DNA of 9,473 bases, from positions 1 through 9,473 of the IMG/VR virus record IMGVR_UViG_2703718801_000021; one strand, written 5' to 3'. The number at the start of each line of letters is the position of its first letter. Position 1 is the first letter of the stretch. The DNA is from a virus (lineage: Duplodnaviria; Heunggongvirae; Uroviricota; Caudoviricetes). The position numbers and the translations under genes were made by a program. Below, one piece after another: positions 5,940 through 6,229 of this stretch. The notes below the pieces were generated by a model. That model saw only the letters and a list, made by a program, of their open reading frames with translations. It had not been told where the DNA came from and ran no database searches.

Positions 5940-6110
5940 TCACGATCTCCCTTTTGGCGATACATTAACGCCTGCTGCGTGTACATGCGTCTCTGTAACT
6001 TGCTCTCCTTCACTGTGGTTGCAAGTGACATGAATATCTCCTTCGTTACCGATTAATTCTTTCATCTGACGAATGAATTCTTCGTCTGACCAGTTATCTG
6101 TAAAACTCAT
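5940..6110 (-). CDS. Hypothetical small protein, 56 aa (MSFTDNWSDEEFIRQMKELIGNEGDIHVTCNHSEGEQ...); positional analogue of arf/gam slot
   Basis: ATG at 6110..6108 overlaps the TGA stop of the Kil-like ORF (ATGA) and follows AGGAA very closely. It lies between the kil-like gene and erf. No recognised family. Confidence 0.4.
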   Translation of the reverse strand: MSFTDNWSDEEFIRQMKELIGNEGDIHVTCNHSEGEQVTETHVHAAGVNVSPKGRS

Positions 6111-6229
6111 TTCCTGCGATACCACGGAAGGTTGATAGCTGATTTCATCGCTTTATTTGCTTCAAGCCACATTTTTGAATCACCAATAAATCTGGCTATT
6201 ACTGCTTTGTTCTGTGCAGCACGAAGCAT
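6107..6229 (-). CDS. kil: Kil-like small host-interfering peptide, 40 aa (MLRAAQNKAVIARFIGDSKMWLEANKAMKSAINLPWYRRK)
   Basis: Hand-translated; not in the ORF track. It starts 14 nt after the cIII-like stop, in the position kil occupies in lambda. The core ARFIGDSKMWLEA resembles lambda Kil as I recall it (..ATFIGDEKMFREA..); this is unverified. Confidence 0.45.
   Translation of the reverse strand: MLRAAQNKAVIARFIGDSKMWLEANKAMKSAINLPWYRRK

Follow-up and report, generated by a model that had tools for sequence, protein, structure and literature searches.

The cIII-to-erf interval and its relatives

The window, by which we mean the whole 9,473-nucleotide stretch of viral DNA that was analysed, carries on its minus strand the gene order cIII, kil, 42.1, 42 and erf, as established by listing open reading frames of at least 30 amino acids and reading the sequence from 6280 to 5840. 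The features of this interval and its immediate surroundings are as follows.

6411..6468, minus strand: two terminator-like hairpins of the tL type upstream of cIII (pattern scan; a putative terminator is annotated at the first of them in HK97)
6244..6378, minus strand: cIII, 44 aa, HK022-type (Pfam cIII family PF08134, E = 1.5e-29, 101.9 bits against a cutoff of 25; equivalent to HK022_44)
6264..6268, minus strand: GGAGG, putative Shine-Dalgarno sequence for a 50-aa kil, inside cIII (sequence reading; 4 nt before ATG 6259)
6107..6259, minus strand: kil, most likely 50 aa, λ-Kil family (Pfam Lambda_Kil, phrog_2055 and BLASTP with λ Kil; identical to the Kil of HK022, HK97 and Sf6)
5940..6110, minus strand: gene 42.1, 56 aa (HK022_42.1; phrog_2123, E = 4e-40, residues 1-52 of 52)
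6038..6043, minus strand: AAGGAG, putative Shine-Dalgarno sequence of gene 42, within the codons of 42.1 (sequence reading; 6 nt before ATG 6031)
5861..6031, minus strand: gene 42, 56 aa, HkaM family by sequence, missed earlier (HK022_42; phrog_1723, E = 9.6e-33)
5245..5850, minus strand: erf, 201 aa, P22-type single-strand annealing protein (Pfam ERF, E = 3.4e-44; HK022_41)

The interval from 5800 to 6500 is 98.3% identical in nucleotide sequence, over its full length, to phage HK022 (megablast, with 329 phage records matched). The annotation of HK022 (AF069308) lists CIII, Kil (153 nt), 42.1, 42 and a "P22 erf-like protein" at coordinates that coincide with those of the window after mapping, and the early-left operon of HK022 has the same gene order, overlaps and reading frames, together with an identical Kil protein. 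From this operon the window differs by point substitutions only, examples being leucine at position 50 of gp42, where most relatives have phenylalanine, and lysine instead of glutamate at position 53 of gp42.1. Genes 32-28 of Sf6 form the same five-gene set, and HK97 is likewise annotated with cIII, kil, 42.1, 42 and erf, while an older short HK022 entry (X16093) already listed a "kil gene product (AA 1-50)" and a "cIII gene product (AA 1-44)". As a whole, the interval is probably part of the early-left (PL) operon of a lambdoid prophage of the HK022/HK97/Sf6 type, a reading to which we assign a probability of about 0.85. Its gene content is ordinary and already known for HK022/HK97-type lambdoid phages. 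The cIII-kil order, which the initial annotation of this DNA had described as that of λ, agrees with the λ arrangement, and the P22-style Erf module reported downstream is borne out by the Pfam ERF match. The junction of the two, λ-like cIII-kil with an Erf module, is present as proposed but is not new, since HK022, HK97 and Sf6 are already annotated in this way. With kil, 42.1 and 42 all annotated in these three phages, the discovery value of the interval is small, and its value lies in annotation.

Outside the interval, the window (1-9473) is a mosaic of which the best phage record covers at most 49%: the flanking parts derive from other lambdoid phages, of the Stx type, the int end being similar to BP-4795 and YYZ-2008, and the block from cIII to abc2 is of the HK022 type. 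The HK022 record itself has an IS903 transposase gene immediately before cIII on the upstream side. An Rfam scan of the entire window matched no family.

Kil: family and translation start

Three comparisons, with Pfam, PHROG and BLASTP, all lead to the λ Kil family, so that the earlier description of this frame as Kil-like was well founded. The Pfam Lambda_Kil profile (PF06301) matches the 50-aa product with 72.6 bits against a cutoff of 27.6 (E = 1.7e-20, profile positions 1-31 of 31), a sequence score that is far beyond chance, and phrog_2055 "Kil" covers residues 1-50 of 50 (E = 1.2e-35). By BLASTP, residues 10-42 of Kil align without gaps to residues 3-35 of λ Kil, with 18 identities in 33 positions (55%). 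Alignment to P22 Kil, which had been suggested alongside that to λ Kil, gave no BLASTP match at E<=100 and word size 2, λ Kil being the sole match; P22 Kil (62 aa) shares its name and operon position with the window Kil, but the sequence similarity is undetectable and it is a different protein. An NCBIfam scan of the kil, 42.1 and 42 products matched nothing.

λ Kil is a 47-aa, FtsZ/ZipA-dependent division inhibitor, and the resemblance extends over a common helix-turn-helix core that includes A.FIGD.KM..EA, with conservation of the FIGD turn that joins the two predicted helices. In both phages kil overlaps the end of cIII within the PL operon. A basic C-terminal patch of the window Kil (RRK, in YRRK at +21 to +23 after the GD turn) is a possible counterpart of the RSSK of λ (+21 to +24), equally far from the turn and similar in charge but different in motif. 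In contrast, the window Kil is longer by seven residues at its N-terminus and its helix 2 ends differently, and the genes that follow kil are 42.1, 42 and erf in the window, whereas gam, bet and exo follow it in λ. Residues 4-38 of λ Kil form a predicted helix-turn-helix that is needed for activity, and the protein remains active without its first five N-terminal residues (PMC11762379). Its inhibition of FtsZ ring assembly requires ZipA (PMC11762379, PMC3961180), and this ZipA-dependent block has been demonstrated only for the Kil proteins of λ and HK629 (PMC3961180, PMC11762379). By homology, kil of the window would encode a helix-turn(GD)-helix hairpin peptide that blocks FtsZ ring assembly in a ZipA-dependent manner.

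The frame containing ARFIGDSKMWLEA runs for 40 codons from ATG 6229, 14 nt past the cIII stop (TAG 6246-6244), to TGA 6107-6109, exactly as the initial annotation had it. That frame stands, but its start is better placed upstream, as it remains open for 10 further codons above ATG 6229, up to ATG 6259, which overlaps cIII by 16 nt, is preceded by GGAGG at a spacing of four nucleotides and yields a product of 50 aa. We take kil as 6107-6259, with ATG 6259 as the most likely start on sequence grounds, because a Shine-Dalgarno sequence is readable at 6259 and none at 6229, and because of the starts of homologues and the extents of tblastn matches. In Cronobacter phage ENT47670 (63% identity), Kil has its start at the Met1 equivalent, preceded by an AAGGAG-N6 of its own, and kil of Serratia phage Eta and of λ also start upstream of the equivalent of Met11 (ATG 6229), a position occupied by alanine in ENT47670 and by threonine in λ. 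In tblastn, matches at 50-75% identity cover the 50-aa form from residue 1 or 2 onward, and this form is also the annotated Kil of HK022, HK97, Sf6 and X16093. Translation of a 40-aa Kil from ATG 6229 by re-initiation 14 nt after the cIII stop would have the advantage of a distance suitable for termination-reinitiation, and the resulting peptide would begin at the equivalent of λ residue 4; since λ Kil tolerates the loss of its first five residues (PMC11762379), such a peptide would retain the helix-turn-helix core. This start is nevertheless quite improbable, as Met11 is not conserved and the homologues all start further upstream, each behind a Shine-Dalgarno sequence, in addition to the missing Shine-Dalgarno sequence at 6229 and the reach of the tblastn matches. 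For annotation of the HK022/HK97-type group, Kil is therefore probably to be given as 50 aa, not 40.

The overlapping genes 42.1 and 42

The ATG of gene 42.1 (6110) overlaps the TGA of kil (6109-6107) as ATGA, in agreement with the initial annotation, and its own stop is TGA 5942-5940. The further placement of this 56-aa ORF immediately before erf was wrong because gene 42 had been overlooked: 42.1 ends 90 nt upstream of the erf ATG (5850), and the intervening gene 42, with ATG 6031 and stop TGA 5863-5861, ends 10 nt before it. The kil-erf interval of the HK022-type group thus holds two overlapping small genes, not one. Gene 42 overlaps 42.1 by 92 nt in a different frame, and the reading frame of 42.1 covers both the AAGGAG and the ATG of gene 42. 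By sequence reading, the Shine-Dalgarno sequence of 42.1 itself is poor, consisting of AGGA at a 1-nt spacing.

To define which frame is coding, we compared 86 related loci (49 distinct sequences) over the 250 nt that begin with the ATG of 42.1 and end with the stop of gene 42, in an alignment that is gap-free and in which both frames are kept without indels, 79 of 80 IMG/VR loci being among them. Apart from variants linked to the Sf6-type allele block, the overlap (6031-5940) contains 11 single-site polymorphisms, each of them at a third codon position of gene 42 and synonymous there (binomial p = 6e-6), and in the part that belongs to 42.1 only (6110-6032), 13 of 20 polymorphisms fall at third positions of 42.1 (p = 0.004), both counts treating variable sites of related sequences as independent. 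The same 11 overlap variants are, without exception, missense or nonsense in 42.1, including Q37*, which occurs at locus L066, and R55*. The Sf6-type allele block moves the 42.1 stop from 56 to 52 aa, and the alleles as a whole end variously at 52, 53, 56 and 60 aa. Homologues of gp42 keep the N-terminal MSLATTVKES... as protein, and the gene 42 frame is therefore coding throughout the overlap. Codons 1-26 of 42.1 (6110-6033) behave as coding, and the last 30 codons are an out-of-frame read of gene 42. The first ~26 codons appear to be translated and under selection, unlike the other 30, given the third-position bias and the in-frame-only variants of the former and the fact that the overlap variants are all non-silent in 42.1.

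Length variants of gp42.1 are in-frame only. They comprise a 15-nt deletion (DNWSD) in phiKp_30 (locus L007, 1107-1280) and one or two additional in-frame 21-nt copies (EFIRQMK) in the database proteins P0024 and P0031.

In the arrangement that we propose, gene 42.1 would be translationally coupled to kil through the ATGA, its N-terminal ~26 residues (MSFTDNWSDEEFIRQMKELIGNEGD) would alone be conserved with coding-type constraint, and the remainder would be unconstrained read-through over the start of gene 42. Gene 42, with its own strong ribosome-binding site, would then supply a 56-aa helical hairpin from the position directly preceding erf. It is also conceivable that 42.1 makes no functional protein and acts as an upstream ORF, whose kil-coupled translation passes over the start of gene 42 and its ribosome-binding site and thereby tunes the expression of gp42. 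The unconstrained tail with its nonsense variants and the location of the AAGGAG and ATG of gene 42 within 42.1 are consistent with such a role, as is the poor Shine-Dalgarno sequence of 42.1, which makes it dependent on kil translation. Likewise, the open tail of 42.1 is no longer than expected from the amino-acid sequence of gp42: synonymous resampling of gp42 codons gave P = 0.13 for the window and a combined p = 0.13 over three lineages, so that selection keeping the tail open was not significant. We regard a purely regulatory 42.1 as unlikely, however, in view of the bias of polymorphisms to third positions in its first 26 codons and the restriction of its indels to in-frame events. Furthermore, the N-terminal peptide is kept at 40-60% identity in Pseudocitrobacter and SPN9CC and also occurs as a stand-alone 35-aa ORF where gene 42 does not follow.

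That the two reading frames yield a single 42.1-42 fusion of about 82 aa, by +1 ribosomal frameshifting or with the two-frame state being a sequencing error, is suggested by HK97, whose Gp42.1 is annotated as one 83-aa ORF joining both halves, and by several 82-aa proteins in protein collections that match both 42.1 and 42. The loci themselves speak against it: the 86 loci overall, with 79 of 80 IMG/VR loci, are gap-free and show two frames, and none of the 79 usable IMG/VR loci holds a fusion ORF. In the fusion proteins, most of which belong to clusters of one to four sequences, 42.1 is joined to 42 at eight different points of the overlap, a pattern that scattered 1-nt deletions or assembly errors would give in a stretch where both frames are open, and that one shift site would not. 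Relative to Sf6, HK97 carries two single-base insertions at a distance of 6 nt, gene 42 is preceded by a strong Shine-Dalgarno sequence of its own and is found alone in other phages, and the 42.1 stop varies among alleles, which implies that there is no conserved shift site. Programmed frameshifting from 42.1 into 42 was accordingly rejected, and a real fusion product is, in our estimate, extremely improbable. Indels are the best explanation of the 82-83-aa "fusion" ORFs of HK97 and many assemblies; for HK97 itself, the 83-aa Gp42.1 would be either a genuine fusion or the result of a compression artefact in sequencing.

The insertions in HK97 (locus L002, 1890-2141) shift the C-terminal part of gene 42 into the frame of 42.1, so that it is no longer read from the gene 42 ATG. 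The fusion proteins in the collections (P0010, P0013, P0020, P0032, P0042, P0051, P0052 and P0065) are of 82 aa, with one of 70 aa, and account for the eight junction positions. A terminator-like hairpin at 5944-5929, inside gene 42, was also considered as a candidate and set aside, as it is weak (3 GC pairs) and such sites are no more frequent than expected by chance.

Gene 42, the Arf question and the recombination module

By profile comparison, gp42 is a member of the HK620 HkaM family: hhalign of gp42 against HK620 HkaM and its SPN9CC relative gave a probability of 97.2% (E = 4.2e-11, 54 columns). Like gp42, HkaM of HK620 (62 aa) is encoded just upstream of the annealing-protein gene, after kil, and ends in ...LPF; unlike the window, HK620 has no 42.1-type ORF, its HkaM is 30% identical to gp42 and the annealing protein encoded next is Sak4, not Erf. 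On account of its position HkaM initially received the name "arf", and it was later treated as an orphan without homology to P22 Arf (PMC5928155). In HK620, sak4 and ssb together reproduced the recombineering level of the whole module, so that HkaM was not needed in that assay, which speaks against an essential role in recombination (PMC5928155).

Full-length homologues of gp42 without any 42.1-type ORF are found in Erwinia phage 59 (46%), Salmonella phage ABTNLsp11242 (68%) and a Yersinia similis prophage (52%), and a search of representatives yielded further relatives at 45-57% identity. A phmmer search of gp42 against 1.8 billion representatives returned about ten small clusters together with weak multi-stretch matches to TPR proteins, and these weak matches suggest a TPR-like hairpin, nothing more. 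The AlphaFold2 model of gp42, generated from a 10-sequence alignment, consists of two helices (5-26 and 30-49) with a mean pLDDT of 86, and Foldseek of this model against the PDB retrieved generic helical hairpins only, all at E>1. The most conserved block of the protein is the C-terminal ...LNQRYFLGxxPF, of which the terminal PF is invariant. In nearly every locus examined, gene 42 is followed by an annealing-protein gene at a gap of <=10 nt, and the annealing-protein cores found in this position include P22-type Erf, Sf6-type and Sak4-like ATPase. In the locus of Salmonella phage ABTNLsp11242 (L006, 1379-1849), an HNH endonuclease gene lies between the gene 42 homologue and erf, the only such locus seen.

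The initial annotation had assigned the 56-aa ORF to an arf/gam-type slot. It is gene 42, however, that holds the slot adjacent to erf, a Pfam scan for a Gam domain in cIII, Kil, gp42.1 and gp42 found none, and the likeness of gp42.1 to Arf comes down to a 7-residue motif. This motif, (F/W)SDEEFI, is common to gp42.1 and P22 Arf (MQHEFSDEEFIALIS...) at a nearly equal distance from the start. Were gp42.1 a true orthologue of P22 Arf, it would be expected to stimulate Erf-dependent recombination; stimulation of Erf-mediated recombination by Arf was seen in a genetic assay (Poteete et al. 1991, as cited in PMC12315714), although the molecular function of Arf itself is unexplained (PMC12315714). 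Besides the N-terminal motif, such orthology draws on the small size and acidic character that P22 Arf (47 aa) has in common with gp42.1, on the location of both genes in the interval from kil to erf, on the PHROG family "Erf recombination cofactor Arf" (E = 0.045 against gp42.1), and on one database source in which a 96%-identical protein is named "accessory recombination function protein". Against it, the Pfam profile Phage_Arf (PF17585) matched neither gp42.1 nor four relatives even at E<=10, with P22 Arf itself scoring 121 bits, and hhalign of a 9-member gp42.1 alignment with a 16-member Arf alignment reached a probability of 20.8% (E = 1.1e-3) over 16 columns only, the alignable stretch being at most about 16 residues. 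P22 arf overlaps the start of erf by 4 nt, whereas 42.1 in the window is separated from erf by gene 42. In HK140, SEN22, Louie and mEpX1, acidic ORFs of 35 aa that precede RecT modules begin with the same N-terminal peptide, and in Pseudocitrobacter it heads a 53-aa ORF, with gene 42 next and a Sak4-like ATPase as the annealing protein; since the peptide occurs in RecT and Sak4-like modules, it does not track Erf. Membership of gp42.1 in the Arf family is thus not established, given the missing Pfam match, the 16 columns and the presence of the head peptide in RecT and Sak4-like modules. Judged by sequence, 42.1 is weakly linked to P22 Arf and true orthology is doubtful, while a common ancestral N-terminal segment of gp42.1 and Arf is possible.

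Position alone suggests that gp42 and gp42.1 are likely to serve the recombination module as small accessory proteins or adaptors. The free, invariant C-terminal ...FLGxxPF of gp42 resembles the ...IPF or ...PPF tip of SSB tails, and this tip is needed by annealing proteins such as Sak4. One could imagine gp42, predicted to be a TPR-like helical hairpin of one repeat, as an adaptor that competes with or mimics the SSB tail and so times the hand-off from SSB to the annealase, with the conserved 20-residue head of gp42.1 as the functional core that gp42.1 has in common with P22 Arf; as a model this is speculative and very unlikely. If true, it would offer an initial molecular entry point to the "accessory recombination function", which has long lacked an explanation. 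Two associations of gp42 were tried and found not to be general: it does not consistently travel with a ~55-aa C-terminal domain of the annealing protein, as HkaM precedes an HK620 Sak4 that lacks this tail and one gp42 allele pairs with two domain alleles, nor does it track a phage SSB gene, as SPN9CC has abc1 instead.

In RefSeq (NC_002167, NC_019705 and others) and PHROG, both gp42 and gp42.1 are labelled "recombinase", a label for which we found no basis in sequence or literature.

The ~55-aa C-terminal domain is encoded at 5245-5410 (minus strand) of the window, and similar copies are shared by annealing proteins of differing cores at loci L005, L007, L008, L097 and L098, with the pattern ...EQVLKAF...ELK..F..AW..L.G......KA..VY.IR..EL...A. 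The cores that bear it are P22-type Erf, Sf6-type and Sak4-like ATPase, and the Sak4 of HK620 has no such tail by sequence reading. Following erf, a 127-aa protein encoded at 4862-5245 (minus strand) corresponds to HK022 gp40, described as a "likely analog of P22 Abc1"; it has no Pfam match and ends in ...YDDSIPF, resembling the C-terminal tip of SSB. The gp40 of HK97 has been classed as a structure-predicted SSB, "SSB-1b" (PMC12315714). The P22-style module is completed at 4542-4838 (minus strand) by an Abc2 anti-RecBCD protein (Pfam Anti-RecBCD_p2, E = 3.5e-62).
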